Origin: Escherichia phage humlepung
Reading direction: 5' to 3' (one strand)
Sequence record: MN850564.1
DNA length: 64,000 bases
Shown here: piece by piece, positions 2,669 through 63,575 of the stretch
Position numbering within the stretch: position 1 is the first letter of the stretch
How the letters are laid out: every line of letters starts with the position of its first letter
Notes under the pieces: model-generated
The model's database searches: none
What the model was told of the DNA's origin: nothing
Seen by the model: the letters and a program-made list of their open reading frames with translations, nothing else
Translations under genes and position numbers: made by a program

Positions 2669-3242
2669 AAAAGGTCTAGTTAGAACCTTAGTGGATGTTA
2701 TTGGTCACAGACTAGCTCGTGATAAAAATAATAGGCCAAACGTAATTAGAGCTTACCCTTCTGATAACTCAAATGACAAAGGTTTAAAACCTGACCAGCC
2801 ATTTATCACCGTATATTGTCAAGATGCTGCAACACCTTATGGTTGGGTTCTTGATAAGTTTGTTGAGGATGATGTAGTTTGCTACAGAATTGCTTTTCAG
2901 ATTCCAGTATTAATTACGGTGAATGGTAAAGGTGCTCACAGTATTATGCTTGAGCTTAAACAACGATTAGAGATGAGTTCAGTCAGAGATTTAATCCTTG
3001 AAGAAACAGGAGCTACAGTACTAGACACTGGAGCTATCCCGAATGACTATACTTATCTCAATACAGATTTCGAAAATTCTGCACCTCTTGTTGTAACTCT
3101 TGTAAAAAACTCAGTCCTGAAGGATGAACGTGGAAGTATTATTGAGCGTGTCATTGTTGATGGTGAGTTGGTTTATGAAGAAGGACAAGAGCCACCAGAA
3201 TATACTATCCATCTAGATGTAGACTCCAAAGGGGTAAAATAA
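2643..3242 (+). CDS. hypothetical tail completion/neck protein
   Basis: 199 aa; overlaps upstream gene by 26 nt; no alternative in-frame ATG. Confidence 0.4.
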   Translation: MQLETAELEKGLVRTLVDVIGHRLARDKNNRPNVIRAYPSDNSNDKGLKPDQPFITVYCQDAATPYGWVLDKFVEDDVVCYRIAFQIPVLITVNGKGAHSIMLELKQRLEMSSVRDLILEETGATVLDTGAIPNDYTYLNTDFENSAPLVVTLVKNSVLKDERGSIIERVIVDGELVYEEGQEPPEYTIHLDVDSKGVK

Positions 3243-4595
3243 ATGTGGAATCCAATTGTTAATGTAGATATTACATTGAACACCGCAGGAACTACAAGAG
3301 AAGGTTTTGGTTTGCCACTATTCTTAGCTTCAACAGATAACTTTGAAGAAAGAGTACGTGGTTACACTTCCTTAACTGAAGTTGCTGAAGATTTCGATGA
3401 GAATACTGCTGCATATAAGGCTGCTAAACAACTTTGGAGTCAGACTCCTAAAGTAACTCAGCTTTATATCGGTAGACGCGCTATGCAGTACACTGTATCA
3501 ATTCCTGATGCCGTTACCGAAAGTACAGACTACTCAATTACTGTAGCTGTTGGCGGTGGAATTTCTCAACCATACCAGTACACAGCACAAGATTCAGACA
3601 CTGCTGAGGTAGTGTTGCAACAGTTTAAAACACAGATTGAAGCTGACCCAACAATCAAAGATAAGGTTTCTGTGAATGTAACTGGTAGCAATGGCTCTGC
3701 CACAATGATTATTACCAAAGCTGGTGATAATGACTTTGTGAAAGTAACAACCACAGCACAGACTGTATATATTGCAAGTACAACTGCTGATACAGCAGCA
3801 ACTGCTCTGGCAGCTATAGAAGCTTACTCTACTGACTGGTATTTCATTGCAGCAGAAGACAGAACTCAACAGTTTGTCTTAGCAATGGCTTCTGAGATTC
3901 AGGCTCGTAAGAAAATCTTCTTTACGGCTAACTCCGATGTAACAGCCCTACAAGGTACAGAATTAGCCAGTGCAAATGATGTTCCAGCACAGCTTGCTAA
4001 GAATATGTACACTCGTACAGTTTGCTTGTGGCATCACGCAGCAGCAGAAGATTATCCAGAGATGGCATACATTGCTTATGGTGCTCCATATGATGCAGGC
4101 TCAATTGCTTGGGGTAATGCTCAGCTAACTGGCGTAGCAGCTTCTCTACAACCACCTAATCAGAGACCTCTGACAAGTATTCAGAAGTCTGCTTTAGATG
4201 TACGTCACTGTAACTTTATTGACCTTGATGGTGGTGTTCCAGTGGTTCGTAGAGGGATTACTTCTGGTGGGGAATGGATTGATATCGTCCGTGGTGTTGA
4301 CTGGTTAGAATCAGACCTGAAAACTTCTCTGAGAGACTTGCTAATTAACCAGAAGGGTGGTAAGATTACTTATGATGATACTGGTATTACCCGTATTCGT
4401 CAAGTCATTGAAACCTCTCTGCAAAGAGCAGTCAACAGAAACTTCCTGTCATCTTACACAGTTAATGTTCCTAAAGCCTCTCAAGTTGCTTTAGCAGACA
4501 AGAAAGCACGTATCCTGAAAGATGTTACCTTCGCAGGTATCTTAGCAGGGGCTATCTTGGATGTTGACTTGAAAGGTACAGTGGCTTACGAATAA
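3243..4595 (+). CDS. tail sheath protein (putative)
   Basis: 450 aa; immediately upstream of a 148-aa tube-sized gene, chaperones and tape measure (myovirus order). Confidence 0.5.
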   Translation: MWNPIVNVDITLNTAGTTREGFGLPLFLASTDNFEERVRGYTSLTEVAEDFDENTAAYKAAKQLWSQTPKVTQLYIGRRAMQYTVSIPDAVTESTDYSITVAVGGGISQPYQYTAQDSDTAEVVLQQFKTQIEADPTIKDKVSVNVTGSNGSATMIITKAGDNDFVKVTTTAQTVYIASTTADTAATALAAIEAYSTDWYFIAAEDRTQQFVLAMASEIQARKKIFFTANSDVTALQGTELASANDVPAQLAKNMYTRTVCLWHHAAAEDYPEMAYIAYGAPYDAGSIAWGNAQLTGVAASLQPPNQRPLTSIQKSALDVRHCNFIDLDGGVPVVRRGITSGGEWIDIVRGVDWLESDLKTSLRDLLINQKGGKITYDDTGITRIRQVIETSLQRAVNRNFLSSYTVNVPKASQVALADKKARILKDVTFAGILAGAILDVDLKGTVAYE

Positions 4596-4610
4596 TAGAG
4601 GTAAATTGGA

Positions 4611-5057
4611 ATGGCTATGTATCAGCAATATTCCCCTAAAGACGTTGTATGTAGCTGGAACGGCATTGCTATTGAAGGCTTTGCTCCAGACTCATTCTTG
4701 CGTCTACAGAGAACATCACCACTTGTGACACCAGTTGTTGGTGCAGGTGGTCAGGTTGCTCTGACACGAAATGCAGACAAGACAGGTACTATTGAGATTG
4801 AGCTAATGCAGACTTCTCTCTCTAACCAGATGCTTTCTGCAATTCAAGCTAAACAAGACAATATGGAACTTGAAGAAGATATCTCTTCTAACTTCGTAAT
4901 CTACGACCCATCAGGCTCTGTTCTGGCAACTGGTATTAACGCTTGGTTGCAGGAGTTACCACAGATTGAACTTGGTCGTGACCAGAACTCTAAAACTTGG
5001 ATTTTTGGTTGTGAGAAGTTAGACTACACTTCTACAATTCCAGCGTCAAGTGTTTAA
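4611..5057 (+). CDS. tail tube protein (putative)
   Basis: 148 aa between sheath and chaperone genes; followed by a strong terminator. Confidence 0.5.
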   Translation: MAMYQQYSPKDVVCSWNGIAIEGFAPDSFLRLQRTSPLVTPVVGAGGQVALTRNADKTGTIEIELMQTSLSNQMLSAIQAKQDNMELEEDISSNFVIYDPSGSVLATGINAWLQELPQIELGRDQNSKTWIFGCEKLDYTSTIPASSV

Positions 5058-5069
5058 TAAATCCTATAA

Positions 5070-5103
5070 GGGGGAGACTTTAAAAGGTCTTCCCCTTTTT
5101 TGT
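5070..5103 (+). terminator. rho-independent terminator after tube gene
   Basis: GGGGGAGAC...GTCTTCCCC hairpin followed by T8. Confidence 0.6.
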
Positions 5104-5129
5104 TTCTTTTAAAGTATTAAGGAATCACA

Positions 5130-5528
5130 ATGAAAACAGAATCTAGAGTAATTAATGGTAAGAAAGTAAATATCGTTCTGCTTGGGGCAAGAGATGGTAT
5201 TAAGATGTCTATGAAGTTGGGTAAGATTGTTGTCCCAACCTTTGCACAGATGCTATCAAGTCTGACTGACAAGGGTAAGAAAGAAGCTCCAATGGTTCCA
5301 TTTAAAGAACTTGTTGAAGCTTGTTTTGACAGAATTGAAGAAATTAACCTTGAAGAGATGGCTACCCTGCTGTTTCAAGGGGCAACTGTTGATGACTTCC
5401 CACTTAATATTGATACGTACTTCCAAGCAAACTACGGTGAGTTTATTGATTACTTAGCATTTGCGCTGGAGGCAAACTTCGGAAGTTTTTTCGAAGCAAG
5501 CATTTTCAAAAGCCTAACTTCTCAGTAA
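5130..5528 (+). CDS. tail assembly chaperone (G-like, putative)
   Basis: 132 aa between tube and tape measure; RBS AAGGAA; contains T6C slippery run near its 3-prime end. Confidence 0.45.
   Translation: MKTESRVINGKKVNIVLLGARDGIKMSMKLGKIVVPTFAQMLSSLTDKGKKEAPMVPFKELVEACFDRIEEINLEEMATLLFQGATVDDFPLNIDTYFQANYGEFIDYLAFALEANFGSFFEASIFKSLTSQ
5486..5492 (+). other. candidate -1 programmed frameshift site T_TTT_TTC
   Basis: Heptamer in frame 0 of 5130..5528; the -1 frame is open from 5450 to 5770. Confidence 0.35.
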
Positions 5529-5530
5529 AC

Positions 5531-5769
5531 ATGGGTAACACTCTACAGACACCACTAACTGATGCTGCTGTAGAGGCAACCTATGAAGAAGCAGACGAGA
5601 TGAAATTTGTGCTTGCTATTTATGGTATGGAAGGGTGTAAAGAAACACTTGACCAACTCTTTGCTATGACATTCTCTGATTTATTATCATTGAGACAATT
5701 TCTTGAGATTCAGAGGTCGTATAAAGAGGAAATTGCTTACAACGAACTTAGAAGAGCAGGAAAAATGTA

Positions 5770-5770
<1 letters not shown>
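5531..5770 (+). CDS. tail assembly chaperone extension (T-like; -1 frame relative to upstream gene)
   Basis: 79 aa from ATG 5531; lies in -1 frame of the preceding chaperone, directly upstream of tape measure. Confidence 0.4.
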
Positions 5771-13768
<7,998 letters not shown>

Positions 13769-13770
13769 TA

Positions 13771-14919
13771 ATGGCAGTAGGTGAAATTCAAATTAGTGCC
13801 TTGCCTCAAGCAGCCTTACCAATTGACCTTAGTGATATCTTCCATCTTAAACAAGGTATCGAGGATAAAAGATGTACTCTTGAGCAATTACTTGCTCCAC
13901 ACTCAAGCCTAAGAAATAACCCTCATGGTGTTACTAAGACACAAATTGGTTTAGATAACGTTATTAATGCTCTCCAGTTAGTCGCTGAAAATAACTTATC
14001 AGACATTGTTAATGTAGCTGAGGCAAGAGCAAATCTACAGATTATGTCTTCAGAAGAGGTTAATAATCTTATTCAACAGCATATTGATGATAAGAGCAAC
14101 CCACACAATACTACTAAGGCACAGGTTGGGTTAAGCAATGTTCAGAACTGGGTGACATCTAACCTTTATAATGAGGATGCGGATAAGTATGCTACAGCAA
14201 GAGCAGTAAATAACTTGTACAAGGCTGTTCAGGCTTCTTATCCAGTAGGTACTATCCATCTTTCTATGAATCCTGCAAACCCCTCTACATATTTAATTTG
14301 TGGAGGTACTTGGGAGTTAGTCTCAAAAGGGAGAGCACTTGTAGGTTATGATAGTGATTCTAGGCCAGTTGGTTCAACGTTTGGTTCACAGACTACTGCA
14401 TTGACGGTTAATAACATCCCTGCACATACCCACTCAGTGTATGTCACTGGTGGTGGTCACACTCATGGTGCAACGGCCTCTATCAGTGCTTTTGATTATG
14501 GCACTAAAGGGACTACAACGTTTGACTACGGAACCAAGACCGTATCTACTTACGACTATGGCAACAGAACAACAAGTGCCGCTGGCTTAACACAAACAAC
14601 ATTCATTAACCGTGGCTATGCTGATGGTGGCTGGAGAGGTTTATCGGTTGAGGGGGCAAGCTATGACCCAAGAGCTACGTTGACAACAGCTAACAACCAC
14701 ACTCACTCTGTAGCAATTGGTGCGCATAATCATACGGTTGGTATTGGTGCTCACAGCCATTCTGTTGCAATTGGTTCCCACAGCCACTCAGCAACAGTAA
14801 CAGTAACCGGAGCAGGTGAGCATTCGCACTCTGGCACAACTGGTCCAACTGGTTCTGGTCAAGCATTTAGTGTTGAACAGCCATCCTTCGTATTGTATGT
14901 ATGGCAGAGAACAGCTTAA
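13771..14919 (+). CDS. tail fibre protein with C-terminal His-box (HxH) repeats
   Basis: 382 aa; repeated NPHxxTKAQ(I/V)GLxNV motifs; C-terminal HTHS/HNHT/HSHS repeats ending ...VWQRTA, paralogous to the next gene. Confidence 0.6.
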   Translation: MAVGEIQISALPQAALPIDLSDIFHLKQGIEDKRCTLEQLLAPHSSLRNNPHGVTKTQIGLDNVINALQLVAENNLSDIVNVAEARANLQIMSSEEVNNLIQQHIDDKSNPHNTTKAQVGLSNVQNWVTSNLYNEDADKYATARAVNNLYKAVQASYPVGTIHLSMNPANPSTYLICGGTWELVSKGRALVGYDSDSRPVGSTFGSQTTALTVNNIPAHTHSVYVTGGGHTHGATASISAFDYGTKGTTTFDYGTKTVSTYDYGNRTTSAAGLTQTTFINRGYADGGWRGLSVEGASYDPRATLTTANNHTHSVAIGAHNHTVGIGAHSHSVAIGSHSHSATVTVTGAGEHSHSGTTGPTGSGQAFSVEQPSFVLYVWQRTA

Positions 14920-14928
14920 TTTCTTTAC

Positions 14929-14950
14929 AGGGGCTGTATAGCCCCTTTTA
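14929..14950 (+). terminator. hairpin terminator between the two fibre genes
   Basis: AGGGGCTGTATAGCCCCT followed by TTTT; preceded by the CTTTACAG motif shared with the downstream cassette family. Confidence 0.45.
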
Positions 14951-14965
14951 AGAGGAAAATTTATA

Positions 14966-17305
14966 ATGGCAGATTACAAGTTGAGTGAATTAAACTCAAT
15001 CGACACAATCCGTTCAGACGACCTTCTCCATGTCAGGGTTAAAAAGAGACCTGAAATGTTAGGTGATGAAGACCGTCGAATGACCTATCAAGACTTCTTA
15101 GCGTCTTTTAAACTAGAAAGATTTGTTCAGATTGCTGGTAGCACTATGACGGGTGACTTAGGAATTGTCAAGTTACTTTATGGTGGTAAGGCAGTATTTG
15201 ACCCTACAGACTCTTCTGAGATTACTATGGGGGATGTTTTAAAGGCTTTTAAAATCAATGCAAACGGTCTTAAACTAACTATTGCAGATGCTTCAAGGTC
15301 TGCAACTGTTTATCATACTCTGAATAAGCCAAGCCCTAATGAACTTGGGATGAGAACTAATGAAGAGAATGACGCAAGATATGCAAGGTTGGCTGTTACA
15401 AACACATTTAACTCTAAACAGACCATTGTAGCAAATGGGGAACAGTTAACACTAAGGTCTCCTGTGAGTGGGGATAGAGCATACTCTGCTATTGTAGGTA
15501 GGGATGCAAGTAATGAAAAAACTTGGGCTATTGGGAACCTGATTAGGGGTAGTCTTGATGTTCAAATCGAGAGTAAACTAGGTTCCATCCTCACTCTAGG
15601 CACGGCTGCTTCTTTTAATAGGTCTTTATCAATCAATGGTCAAGTGCAACCTTCTGACTTCTCTAACTTGGATGCAAGATACTTCACACAGACAGCAGCT
15701 AATCAGAGATTTGCACAGCTAGTTGGCAATAACACCTTCAGGGGTATTAACAATTTTGTAGGAGAGTTCAATATCACCAGAGATAACGCTGTGCTAGTCA
15801 TTAAGAATGCCACTGCTGCAACTGGACTATACTTGCTGGGGCAGAAGGCTGATGGGACAAACAAGTTCTACTTAGGGACTGATAACTCTGATTCTGCAGT
15901 CAACCTACATAACTACACCACGAGTACAACTATCTCTTTGTCAAATGTGATTACCACTACTAAGACTGTGAAAATCACTGGTCAAGTTCAGCCTTCAGAT
16001 TGGGCTAACATTGACTCTAGATACATTCCAGCAGCAACATTAAGTACAATTGCAAGAACTAATGCAAGTAACACGTTCACTGCAAAGCAGGTTATTAACA
16101 CTAATGGTGAAGCTCTTGTGTTACAAGGAAAAACAACCGCCGCACTTTACATTAGGGGTAAGGACTATGATGGAACGAATAGGTGGTATGTTGGCAATGA
16201 TGACGGTAGTGACACTGTTAGTTTGTATAACTATAAAACTGGTAAAAACCTAAGCATTGGTTCCGAAGTATCAATTAATGCAAACTTAGTAATTGGTGGT
16301 CAAGTACAACCTAGCAACTTCACAAACTTTGATGCAAGGTATTACGGTAAAGCCGAAGCCGATTCAAAGTATTTCTGGTCAGCATTCAGAGCTTCGAAGA
16401 CCGAGGCTGCTGGTGGTGTGGCTTGGGACCAACCATCAGGAATCTATCTTGAGACAAAATCTAGCGGGCAAAACCGTTTAGTCTTGCACATGGCCTCTAA
16501 TGCGAAAGCCCTAACACCATCTGCACAATTAAGATTTGAATCGAAAAATGGTGGGATGTGGTACAGGTCAGCCAGAGACACACTTGGCTTTGAGGTTGAA
16601 TGGTCTAAGGTTTACACTGAAGCTCAGAAACCTACCCCTTCAGAGATTGGTGCATACACTAAAGCTGAAACTGACCAGAAGATTGCAGAAGCAATTAGTG
16701 ACTCTACAGACCTGAATAAAATCTATCCAGTAGGTATTGTGACGTGGTTTAACAGTAATGTTAACCCTAATACAGCACTGCCTGGCCTAACTTGGACGTA
16801 TCTGAAGAATGGTGTTGGTAGGACTATTAGAATTGCAGCAGCAAATGGTTCAGATGTTGCTACAACTGGTGGTTCAGATTCTGTAACGTTAGCTGTTGGT
16901 AACTTACCTTCGCACACGCACAGTTTTTCTGCGACTACCTCATCGTTTGACTACGGAACAAAAAACACTAACACGACTGGTGCTCACACTCACTCTGTAA
17001 GTGGCTCTACTTCATCTGCTGGTAACCACAACCATTCCATTTCGTGGATTGGTCAGAACTCTACACACTACTCTGGTGGTGGTGGTGGTAGTATTGGTGT
17101 AGGACCGGGTTACACCGATGTTAACGGTGCTCACACCCACTCCGTAAGTGGTACTGCCGCTTCTGCTGGTAACCATGCTCACAGTGTTGGTATTGGTGCT
17201 CACAGTCATACAGTAAGTGGTAACACTGGTGGTACAGGTTCTGGTTCAGCATTTAGTGTTACTAACCAGTTCTACAAGTTAATGGCTTGGGTGAGAACTG
17301 CTTAA
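14966..17305 (+). CDS. long tail fibre protein with His-box C-terminus
   Basis: 779 aa; three internal ~110-aa repeats containing GQVQPS(D/N)(F/W)xN(L/I/F)D(A/S)RY; C-terminus HTHS/HNHS/HAHS/HSHT repeats ending ...MAWVRTA. Confidence 0.6.
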   Translation: MADYKLSELNSIDTIRSDDLLHVRVKKRPEMLGDEDRRMTYQDFLASFKLERFVQIAGSTMTGDLGIVKLLYGGKAVFDPTDSSEITMGDVLKAFKINANGLKLTIADASRSATVYHTLNKPSPNELGMRTNEENDARYARLAVTNTFNSKQTIVANGEQLTLRSPVSGDRAYSAIVGRDASNEKTWAIGNLIRGSLDVQIESKLGSILTLGTAASFNRSLSINGQVQPSDFSNLDARYFTQTAANQRFAQLVGNNTFRGINNFVGEFNITRDNAVLVIKNATAATGLYLLGQKADGTNKFYLGTDNSDSAVNLHNYTTSTTISLSNVITTTKTVKITGQVQPSDWANIDSRYIPAATLSTIARTNASNTFTAKQVINTNGEALVLQGKTTAALYIRGKDYDGTNRWYVGNDDGSDTVSLYNYKTGKNLSIGSEVSINANLVIGGQVQPSNFTNFDARYYGKAEADSKYFWSAFRASKTEAAGGVAWDQPSGIYLETKSSGQNRLVLHMASNAKALTPSAQLRFESKNGGMWYRSARDTLGFEVEWSKVYTEAQKPTPSEIGAYTKAETDQKIAEAISDSTDLNKIYPVGIVTWFNSNVNPNTALPGLTWTYLKNGVGRTIRIAAANGSDVATTGGSDSVTLAVGNLPSHTHSFSATTSSFDYGTKNTNTTGAHTHSVSGSTSSAGNHNHSISWIGQNSTHYSGGGGGSIGVGPGYTDVNGAHTHSVSGTAASAGNHAHSVGIGAHSHTVSGNTGGTGSGSAFSVTNQFYKLMAWVRTA

Positions 17306-17384: not shown

Positions 17385-17579
17385 ATGCCTACAATCCTAG
17401 CAATTCTTCTAAAAAATCTAGGTAGCTTCTTCTGGAAACTCATTTTATCCCTTCTAAGTGAATACATGATTGAGAAAGTGTTCTTTAAGCTTGCAAGATA
17501 CCTTGCGAGTAAGACAGACACACCTATTGATGATGAGTTCGTAGATAACTTAGAAAAAGCTTTTAAGGGAGAGAAATAA
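17385..17579 (+). CDS. small hypothetical protein (hydrophobic N-terminus)
   Basis: 64 aa; RBS GAGGTGA; ATG 17385. Confidence 0.45.
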   Translation: MPTILAILLKNLGSFFWKLILSLLSEYMIEKVFFKLARYLASKTDTPIDDEFVDNLEKAFKGEK

Positions 17580-17951
17580 ATGAAGTGGCTAGAGGAAGCT
17601 TTTAAAAATAATATTGGTGCAATTGTAGTTGGTATTTTTAGTGTTATCGGAATGTATACCACTATGCAGGTTTCAAGTGGTAAACAAGAAGTGTCTGTCA
17701 CAACAAAGTTACAGCAGTTGGATAATTATTCCAAAAGTAACTATTCAGCTATTCGTGATTTACAGTCTGACATGAGACTGATTCAGCTAGGGATGGAGAA
17801 CCAGAAAGTTCAGTTAGAGAATGTTAAGGGTGAAAACGCAAAACTTACCAAAACTCTTGATAAATTCTCTGACAGTGTGAACAATCTGGCTCAATCAGTA
17901 TCAGCCTTGCAAGCTATTACTGAGAAGAACACAAAGAATACTGAAAAATAA
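17580..17951 (+). CDS. membrane-anchored coiled-coil protein (holin/spanin-like or fibre-associated)
   Basis: 123 aa; N-terminal TM segment IGAIVVGIFSVIGMY then helical region; ATGA-coupled. Confidence 0.45.
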   Translation: MKWLEEAFKNNIGAIVVGIFSVIGMYTTMQVSSGKQEVSVTTKLQQLDNYSKSNYSAIRDLQSDMRLIQLGMENQKVQLENVKGENAKLTKTLDKFSDSVNNLAQSVSALQAITEKNTKNTEK

Positions 17952-17956
17952 AGTTT

Positions 17957-17986
17957 AAGGCTCCTTTTTACGGGAGCCTTTTTTGT
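17957..17986. terminator. terminator at convergence of plus and minus operons
   Basis: GGCTCC...GGAGCC hairpin followed by T6; lies between the stop codons of converging genes. Confidence 0.6.
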
Positions 17987-47243: not shown

Positions 47244-47265
47244 GGGGCTTGAAAGCCCCATTTTG
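47244..47265 (+). terminator. putative terminator/attenuator between the Prs-like and NAMPT-like genes
   Basis: GGGGCT-TGAA-AGCCCC followed by ATTTTG. Confidence 0.4.
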
Positions 47266-52008: not shown

Positions 52009-52038
52009 TTGACAAGGGGCTTCGAAGCCCCTTAGAAT
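52009..52038 (+). promoter_or_regulatory. promoter TTGACA-N18-TAGAAT with perfect GC palindrome in the spacer
   Basis: -35 TTGACA, spacer contains GGGGCTTCGAAGCCCC (doubles as hairpin after rIIA), -10 TAGAAT. Confidence 0.45.
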
Positions 52039-61744: not shown

Positions 61745-61764
61745 AGCCCCTCACAGGGGCTTTT
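61745..61764 (+). terminator. rho-independent terminator
   Basis: GCCCC-TCACA-GGGGC followed by TTTT. Confidence 0.5.
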
Positions 61765-63509: not shown

Positions 63510-63547
63510 ACGCCGCAACGGGGCTAAATAGCCCCAGATACCTTTAC

Positions 63548-63575
63548 AGCCCCTTTCCCATAGGGGCTTTTTTAC
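63548..63575 (+). terminator. rho-independent terminator closing the cassette array
   Basis: AGCCCC...GGGGCT followed by T6; preceded by a type-2-like hairpin GGGGCTAAATAGCCCCAGATA. Confidence 0.55.

Follow-up and report, generated by a model that had tools for sequence, protein, structure and literature searches.

The question raised by positions 13,771 to 17,305 of the 64,000-nucleotide (nt) stretch of Escherichia phage humlepung analysed here (MN850564.1; hereafter the window) is what two adjacent tail fibre genes with related, histidine-rich C-termini provide to a single phage. An initial annotation, made from the letters alone, had proposed that duplicated receptor-binding tips serve either dual receptor use or a recombinational host-range switch. 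Both open reading frames (ORFs) were found where it had placed them, with a spacer of 46 nt between the short tail fibre (STF) gene and the long tail fibre (LTF) gene, and both have equivalents in Bas63 (Escherichia phage JohannRWettstein):

13771..14919, + strand: STF gene, 382 amino acids (aa), equivalent of Bas63 gp26 (ORF; phrog_2097, E 2e-128; PDB 2XGF, E 4e-14)
14966..17305, + strand: LTF gene, 779 aa, equivalent of Bas63 gp27 (ORF; phrog_4277 over 1-779)

The products of the two genes very probably form two sets of homotrimeric baseplate fibres, each set carrying a tip of the T4 gp37 type.

This reading starts from the histidine motifs. The initial annotation had pointed to clusters of HxH motifs near both C-termini and had likened them to the His boxes of T4-type fibre tips. 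The four motifs that it quoted (HTHS, HNHT, HSHS and HAHS) are all present, and in total the STF contains seven HxH motifs (aa 219, 230, 310, 319, 328, 337 and 351) and the LTF six (aa 650, 674, 688, 723, 737 and 746). These numbers exceed everything seen in 5000 residue shuffles, in which the mean was 1.0 for the STF and 0.35 for the LTF and the maxima were 5 and 4, respectively. The C-terminal regions are paralogous, with 31% identity between STF 157-382 and LTF 587-779 (E 2e-14); the tips are duplicated in this sense, but at such identity the duplication is not recent. Likewise, the last 30 aa, which had been called near-identical, are similar (57%), but FVLYVWQRTA and YKLMAWVRTA agree at only 5 of 10 residues. 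The likeness to T4 proved to be one of homology, for the T4 gp37 tip (PDB 2XGF) matches LTF 581-758 (E 3e-17) and STF 146-352 (E 4e-14) by sequence.

With the T4 gp37 HxH motifs at 883, 915, 929, 966, 980, 989 and 998 taken as reference positions, the LTF motifs at 650, 674, 688, 723, 737 and 746 stand in register with T4 883, 915, 929, 966, 980 and 989, that is, with six of the seven. In the STF, the motif at 219 corresponds to T4 883 and those at 310-337 correspond to T4 966-998, so that five of the seven T4 motifs have a counterpart, and the motifs at 230 and 351 are extra. The homology and the HxH register were observed directly in this work, as were the repeats and the mosaic structure described below. 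In T4, the gp37 tip is a homotrimer with iron ions that are each held by six His residues. Judged by these alignments, the His boxes of both humlepung fibres are homologous to the iron-binding HxH needle of the T4 gp37 tip, and by analogy the fibre HxH motifs may coordinate iron.

In nucleotide comparison, the window has 98.9% identity to Escherichia phage Andreotti and is matched by 235 phage records, nearly all of them from Felixounavirus; by these matches, the phage is a member of Felixounavirus, a Felix O1-like coliphage. In its relative Bas63, cryo-electron microscopy (cryo-EM) placed both the STF gp26 (430 Å) and the LTF gp27 (630 Å) on the baseplate, and in both fibres a collar is followed by an HxH needle of six strands and then by a small head, at which the chain reverses and returns to the collar; seven HxH motifs were counted in the STF and six in the LTF (PMC12609058). 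The humlepung STF is 98% identical to gp26 and the humlepung LTF tip is 85-100% identical to gp27, so that the conclusions drawn for Bas63 transfer to the humlepung fibres. The cryo-EM of this close relative also upholds the initial view that both proteins are virion fibres with receptor-binding tips.

Along the STF, the following domains were delimited:

13771..14238, + strand: N-terminal baseplate-binding domain and helix-turn stalk motifs NPHGVTKTQIGLDNV and NPHNTTKAQVGLSNV, aa 1-156 (assignment from the Bas63 paper)
14239..14433, + strand: collar, aa 157-221 (YPVGTI... to the first HTH; Pfam Gp10_C, E 1e-17)
14434..14553, + strand: ascending needle, aa 222-261, with HTH230 and FDYGTK repeats (alignment to T4 gp37)
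14554..14697, + strand: predicted head, presumed to contact the receptor, approximately aa 262-309 (boundaries approximate; between the ascending and descending HxH series)
14698..14829, + strand: descending needle, aa 310-353, with five HxH motifs, four of which align with T4 HxH 966-998
14830..14916, + strand: C-terminal return strand, aa 354-382 (...TGSGQAFSV...WQRTA; aligns with the T4 gp37 C-terminus)

The N-terminal part (aa 1-156) is 88-100% conserved across Felixounavirus relatives, and the collar aligns with the T4 gp37 collar and with T4 gp10. The LTF was compared within a set of 69 LTFs, which was drawn from 90%-identity clusters and is therefore enriched for diversity, and allele classes in this set were cut at 80% identity. 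Its tip was divided in the same way:

16706..16912, + strand: collar, aa 581-649 (aligns to 2XGF)
16913..17035, + strand: ascending needle, aa 650-690, HxH 650, 674 and 688 (in register with T4 883, 915 and 929)
17036..17131, + strand: predicted head, approximately aa 691-722, SISWIGQNSTHYSGGGGGSIGVGPGYTDVNGA (boundaries approximate; between the two HxH series)
17132..17215, + strand: descending needle, aa 723-750, HxH 723, 737 and 746 (in register with T4 966, 980 and 989)
17216..17302, + strand: C-terminal return strand, aa 751-779 (...TGSGSAFSV...WVRTA; invariant in the 69 LTFs; aligns with the T4 gp37 C-terminus)

On the LTF collar the Gp10_C match is weak (23.1 bits, under the family cut-off of 27), and a Pfam Phage_fiber repeat at LTF 742-754 falls slightly under its cut-off (19.7 vs 20 bits). 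The W.RTA end aligns opposite the T4 C-terminal ...IVRLA, and Bartual et al. in 2010 reportedly found that the T4 gp37 C-terminus returns to the collar. With the topology taken from Bas63 and from the T4 alignment, the W.RTA end shared by both fibres would return to the collar, away from the tip. In such a gp37-type fold, the His boxes would be structural: the HxH segments would form the needle, and receptor contact would fall to the His-poor head instead.

The variability of the fibres follows this division, in that hypervariability centres on the predicted heads, with conserved collars and C-termini. Among 12 relatives, two of which are Mooglevirus phages, the head is the least conserved stretch of the STF, with 12-28% identity in the bin 276-300. 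The LTF head falls into 13 allele classes among the 69 LTFs, and its identity drops to 12-30% in Salmonella, Shigella and Citrobacter phages. Within humlepung, the STF and LTF heads differ in length and sequence, and the STF distal cassette has 27-36% identity to each of the other cassettes in the comparison. The STF head cassette occurs in 43 phage records (41 Escherichia), always singly per genome, and the LTF head cassette in 41 records (39 Escherichia), once per genome. The two sets of records largely coincide, and most of these phages were isolated on E. coli K-12-type laboratory strains. As the heads are unrelated, the particle probably has two distinct surfaces for binding lipopolysaccharide (LPS)-core structures of rough E. 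coli. Binding of LPS by the fibres and differing specificities of the two heads are what we infer here; two distinct LPS-core epitopes seem more likely than one, and the use of two different receptors, as the initial annotation had suggested, is plausible from the sequences of the heads.

The LTF carries its tip on a modular shaft, for which pLDDT refers to the predicted local distance difference test of an AlphaFold2 (AF2) model:

14966..15370, + strand: baseplate-binding domain and conserved first beta-helix domain, aa 1-135 (a single allele class)
15371..15700, + strand: repeat R1, aa 136-245, beta domain then linker GQVQPSDFSNLDARY (pLDDT 75-87; 15 allele classes)
15701..16042, + strand: repeat R2, aa 246-359, linker GQVQPSDWANIDSRY (12 allele classes)
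16043..16360, + strand: repeat R3, aa 360-465, linker GQVQPSNFTNFDARY (11 allele classes)
16361..16705, + strand: domain D4, aa 466-580, gp37_C / phage Mu fibre S-like (PF12604, E 1e-14; 17 allele classes)

The three internal repeats of about 110 aa that the initial annotation described are thus present. The linkers GQVQPSDFSNLDARY, GQVQPSDWANIDSRY and GQVQPSNFTNFDARY, each with the GQVQPS motif, begin at LTF aa 225, 339 and 445 (DNA 15638, 15980 and 16298), a spacing of 342 and 318 nt. PF20744 matches the LTF in three stretches (E 3e-49; 165.3 bits vs a cut-off of 21.7), the best of which covers 382-467, within the R3 unit and just past it. The Pfam families found in the LTF are gp37_trimer (three stretches), gp37_C and Gp10_C. 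As units, R1 matches R3 (E 1e-21) and R2 matches R3 (E 1e-20), the match between R1 and R2 is confined to the linker, and the repeat cores have 24-41% identity to one another inside the LTF. No fourth or fifth sequence repeat was found in the LTF with hidden Markov models built from the three units or from 169 units. The stretch ahead of the repeats (aa 1-135) has a mean identity of 96% among the 69 LTFs.

An AF2 monomer prediction of the whole LTF, made with the 69-sequence alignment, had a mean pLDDT of 54. Confidence was high (pLDDT 70-92) in the three repeat domains and over 470-575; the linkers contained short helices, and strands at LTF 96-115 were placed with low confidence. A Foldseek search with this model returned the Mu fibre 8JU3 as the top match, together with the T4 gp34 rod (4UXG and 5NXH), at E 1.6e-6 to 1e-4; by sequence, LTF 483-574 matches 8JU3 at E 9e-18. 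The Bas63 LTF has been described as five beta-helix domains with T4 gp34-like repeats (PMC12609058). These five domains are best read as the conserved N-terminal domain, R1-R3 and the Mu-S-like D4, so that D4 is probably the fifth beta-helix domain of that description; the reconciliation fits, since the same paper names regions 2-5 as the variable ones (PMC12609058).

Comparison of fibre alleles among relatives, which the initial annotation had put forward as a way to look for domain swaps, indeed revealed them as a sharp-edged mosaic across the 12 relatives. Conservation in the STF covers aa 1-200 and the last 7 aa, and identity falls within 201-375. The LTF is conserved over aa 1-120 and 561-680 and forms a mosaic with sharp edges in between, at 121-560. 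For example, the LTF of nataliec differs from that of the window only in aa 121-240 (25-75% identity, with at least 92% in the remainder), that of tootiki only in 241-520, and that of CL1 in 121-240 and 361-560. At the GQVQPS linkers, DNA identity jumps between less than 70% and at least 95%. Among the 69 LTFs, the four shaft modules comprise 11-17 classes each, every linker forms a single class, and 60 distinct module combinations occur. On these alignments, the variability of the shaft modules is cassette exchange by recombination at conserved junctions.

A second kind of exchange involves the tips. In Felix O1, SeKF_63, FG1m and JH2, the distal needle and head are common to the phage's own STF and LTF, with 84% aa identity. 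In such Felix O1-type STF/LTF pairs, identity is 54-57% over the entire tips (E 1e-53 to 1e-59), about 40% over the collars and only 76-81% in the DNA of the common heads. The Felix O1 fibre pair was examined at locus positions 3218-6783. By identity comparison, the collar and the last 30 aa cluster by gene, and the distal cassette clusters by phage; the LTF collar is 97-100% conserved among LTFs. This incongruence between collar and distal cassette indicates that the head cassette has moved between the two paralogous genes, and the DNA identity of 76-81% means that the inter-gene exchange is old and that the sequence was kept at the protein level. Exchange between the STF and LTF slots is thus well supported by the sequence comparisons. 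The Felix O1-type head was found in 86 records, 80 of them Salmonella phages, mostly as two copies per genome, and the JH2-type head in one or two copies per genome.

The JH2-type head is also 70% identical to part of a tail collar fibre protein of Citrobacter phage phiNP (OR565852.1, 2585-2722). As phiNP is an unrelated 45-kb phage, head cassettes appear to cross phage families.

We lean slightly towards a reading of the Felixounavirus fibre locus as a two-slot head cassette system combined with four shaft modules that are reshuffled at the GQVQPS linkers. A cassette of head and distal needle, about 60-90 aa long and bordered by conserved His-box DNA, may be able to fill either slot. Under this two-slot reading, phages from rough E. 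coli K-12 hosts, humlepung among them, would be 'hetero-tipped', with unrelated heads in the two slots, and Felix O1 and most of its Salmonella relatives would be 'homo-tipped', with one head class in both. Slot occupancy may be a main host-range determinant in the genus. No description of two-slot head exchange was found in the searchable literature.

Taken together with the structure of Bas63, the following working of the two fibres is proposed. The 382-aa STF would attach to wedge protein 2, and the 779-aa LTF would attach through a 100-aa protein encoded just upstream:

13466..13768, + strand: LTF-platform gene, 100 aa, equivalent of Bas63 gp25 (gene order; phrog_4141, E 2.5e-62)

In Bas63, the long fibre is anchored to the baseplate wedge through the LTF-platform (PMC12609058). 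In each fibre, the collar would lead into a six-stranded beta-needle in which each HxH motif, contributed by three chains, would jointly hold one iron ion. The chain would turn at the small distal head and run back, and because of this reversal the C-terminus would end in the collar. Specificity would reside in the His-poor heads (STF approximately 262-309, LTF approximately 691-722). The LTF would sample the surface and bind first, and the STF would engage after a change of the baseplate; this order was inferred by the Bas63 authors from the analogy with T4 (PMC12609058). The LTF shaft, built from the conserved beta-helix domain, the three repeats of about 110 aa and the Mu-S-like domain, would resemble the T4 gp34 rod. 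The GQVQPS...RY linkers and the His-box needle DNA would serve as homologous-recombination junctions across the genus, and recombination at these junctions would swap shaft modules and head cassettes between phages and, in other lineages, between both fibre genes.

Several points weigh against two sets of fibres with gp37-type tips. The STF has no HxH motif corresponding to T4 915 or 929, which makes its ascending needle unlike that of T4. The AF2 monomer has a pLDDT below 50 for the LTF tip (578-779) and for the N-terminus; the intertwined needle cannot form in a monomer prediction, and with these scores the tip topology of the humlepung LTF rests on the sequence alignment and the Bas63 structure. 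Moreover, local resolution is low in the fibre structure of Bas63, into which AlphaFold models were fitted (PMC12609058). The receptor literature ties no receptor to either fibre, and large genetic screens resolve Felixounavirus receptors only as 'LPS/OPS'. In addition, no T4 gp38 homologue was found in the window (tblastn, E above 0.7) and no fibre chaperone gene adjoins the LTF gene among the downstream ORFs examined; with a gp38-like chaperone absent from the window, assembly must differ from that of T4. A gp38-type chaperone beside the fibre gene is a trait of T4 itself, not of the tip fold.

Other explanations of the variability and of the paired tips were weighed against these data. The Bas63 paper gives three explanations for LTF variability, none of which is recombination, a word absent from its text; the first is relaxed constraint on the repeats with tolerated missense drift (PMC12609058). 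The identity of only 24-41% among repeat cores of one protein is in its favour, as the fold evidently tolerates much change, but the divergence comes in blocks with sharp edges (121-240 in nataliec, 241-520 in tootiki), DNA identity changes abruptly at the GQVQPS linkers (less than 70% vs at least 95%), and each module has 11-17 classes in 60 combinations. Such sharp-edged blocks, discrete classes and combinations argue for recombination and not local drift, which we regard as very unlikely. Drift aside, a stronger form of the suggestion of the initial annotation, in which a recent tip duplication would be maintained in this genome as a recombinational switch of host range and homologous exchange between the tips would re-target a fibre, has a probability close to negligible. 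It draws on Felix O1 and JH2, in which needle and head are 84% aa identical across genes and the collars about 40%, a difference indicating that cassettes moved between the genes over evolutionary time; even there, the common heads are 76-81% identical at the DNA level, which points to an old exchange. In humlepung, however, the tips are 31% identical, with heads unlike in length and sequence, and the longest exact DNA run common to the STF and LTF genes is 20 nt, the best common blocks being 24-48 nt at 77-96% identity. With no longer exact run than this, there is no active switch in humlepung, and an intra-genome recombination switch between STF and LTF was rejected for too little shared DNA. 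If direct repeats recombined, most of the LTF gene would moreover be lost, and no inverted repeats, invertase or retroelement were found adjoining the fibre genes.

It is more difficult to set aside a functional redundancy of the fibres, with both tips on the same LPS-core structure, although we consider this doubtful. Bas63, whose STF head is the same as in humlepung and whose LTF head is 80% identical, is wholly dependent on an intact LPS core, and the Felix O1-type Salmonella phages mostly bear one head class on both fibres, so that a single specificity is viable. Against this, the two heads are unrelated here, the STF distal cassette being 27-36% identical to all cassettes compared, and they form a fixed pair in about 40 phages, most of which were isolated on E. 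coli K-12-type laboratory strains. By analogy with T4, long and short fibres would moreover act in sequence, reversibly and then irreversibly (PMC12609058).

The terminator-like hairpin that the initial annotation had placed between the two genes is real, but it is followed by four T only and is one of four copies with an identical stem:

14930..14945, + strand: hairpin GGGGCT-GTAT-AGCCCC followed by TTTT (from the sequence; predicted -12.3 kcal/mol; stem 6-7 bp)
14930-14945, 47244-47259, 52016-52031 and 63520-63535, intergenic: hairpin copies with the identical stem
61745-61761 (then TTT) and 63548-63568 (then a T tract): hairpins with reversed stem halves

The copy at 14930 lies 10 nt past the STF stop codon and 20 nt ahead of the LTF start codon. 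A consensus terminator scan called no intrinsic terminator at 14930-14945; it passes over the hairpin because only TTTT follows, which is shorter than the U tract of at least about 5 residues expected after a GC-rich terminator stem-loop. The stem is kept in 12 of 12 relatives with a variable loop, and in Sf18 and Mijalis the T tract is missing and the stem retained. In the window, the stem GGGGCT/AGCCCC with 4-nt loops occurs four times vs 0 expected, and each copy is located 9-12 nt past a + strand stop codon and, where a next gene exists, 20-51 nt before its start codon. Most members of the family have no proper T tract. The hairpin is thus a genome-wide intergenic element with nothing particular to the fibre pair, and the family is possibly a phage-specific weak terminator or RNA-stability or transcript-end element.

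The gene order of the locus equals that of Bas63 gp22-gp34. It runs from wedge 2 (489 aa, Baseplate_J) and wedge 1 (285 aa) through the 100-aa protein to the STF and the LTF, and two small ORFs follow 3' of the LTF, ahead of convergent genes for thymidylate synthase and dihydrofolate reductase. The first small ORF (17385-17579, 64 aa) matches phrog_402, to which no function is assigned, and the second (17580-17951, 123 aa) is annotated as a holin in relatives. A stem-loop at 17957-17980, which scores as a terminator on both strands, parts these two ORFs from the thymidylate synthase gene. No tRNA genes were found in the window.

A two-fibre arrangement with gp37-type tips is already known, having been published for the near-identical phage Bas63; the finding of the initial annotation, although a correct reading of the raw sequence, adds nothing to the Bas63 cryo-EM paper and the T4 gp37 literature. 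The cassette patterns are modest additions that concern the genus more than this window. The practical value lies in annotation, in which the needle is now separated from the likely specificity heads, as is needed for fibre engineering and host-range prediction. In addition, the module classes and the common head cassettes could guide work with Felix O1-type phages in Salmonella diagnostics and biocontrol. Public records label these fibre genes vaguely or swapped. The LTF is 100% identical to the 'tail fibers protein' of the humlepung record, and in the Bas63 record MZ501086 (locus positions 3001-6550) the 382-aa STF bears the label 'long tail fiber protein' and the 784-aa LTF that of 'tail fiber protein', the reverse of the cryo-EM assignment, as the 382-aa fibre is the short one there (PMC12609058). 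An 87%-identical LTF lies on an 88-kb contig labelled Methanobrevibacter gottschalkii, and Felixounavirus fibre genes are found in MG065664 ('Campylobacter phage A132') and GU169904 ('Staphylococcus phage SA1'); these Methanobrevibacter, Campylobacter and Staphylococcus entries look like contaminated or mislabelled ones.

Among known systems, Bas63 is the closest, with the same gene order, domain order, fibre lengths (382 aa; 784 vs 779 aa) and HxH numbers (7 and 6). Its LTF is 70% identical overall and 85-100% identical at the N-terminus and tip, whereas its shaft modules belong to other allele classes (25-75% identity over aa 161-520). Furthermore, the humlepung LTF has HNH at 688-690 without the extra His of the Bas63 HHxH motif. 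The T4 gp37 tip (2XGF) is homologous in its collar, its FDYGTK motif and its HxH needle and likewise has a head between ascending and descending strands, but the sequence of that head is unrelated to the humlepung heads, and the C-terminal motif TGSG.AFSV...W.RTA of the STF and LTF is absent from T4. In T4, gp37 ends a fibre made of four proteins (gp34-gp37), whereas the humlepung tips sit on single-gene fibres directly on the baseplate. To our knowledge, the T4 short fibre gp12 has no gp37-type tip.

The T4 gp34 rod (4UXG, 5NXH) resembles the LTF shaft in its repeated beta domains and helix-turn linkers, with a Foldseek E of 5e-6 across some 430 columns, but sequence identity is only 12-14%, and a PDB search by LTF sequence gave no match to the gp34 rod structures. 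The TM-scores are low as well, because the orientation of domains in the monomer model is arbitrary. The domain that matches the Mu tail fibre S (8JU3; PF12604, gp37_C) is internal in the LTF, between the repeats and the collar, and is not followed by Mu's own tip. Finally, in the T-even 'His box' model, which Tetart et al. are said to have put forward in 1998 in J Mol Biol, conserved motifs flank hypervariable adhesin segments. Felixounavirus would fit this model, with conserved His-box DNA around a hypervariable head and an exchange of head classes, and would go beyond it in two respects: exchange also spans two paralogous fibre genes, and the GQVQPS linkers provide a second set of junctions.

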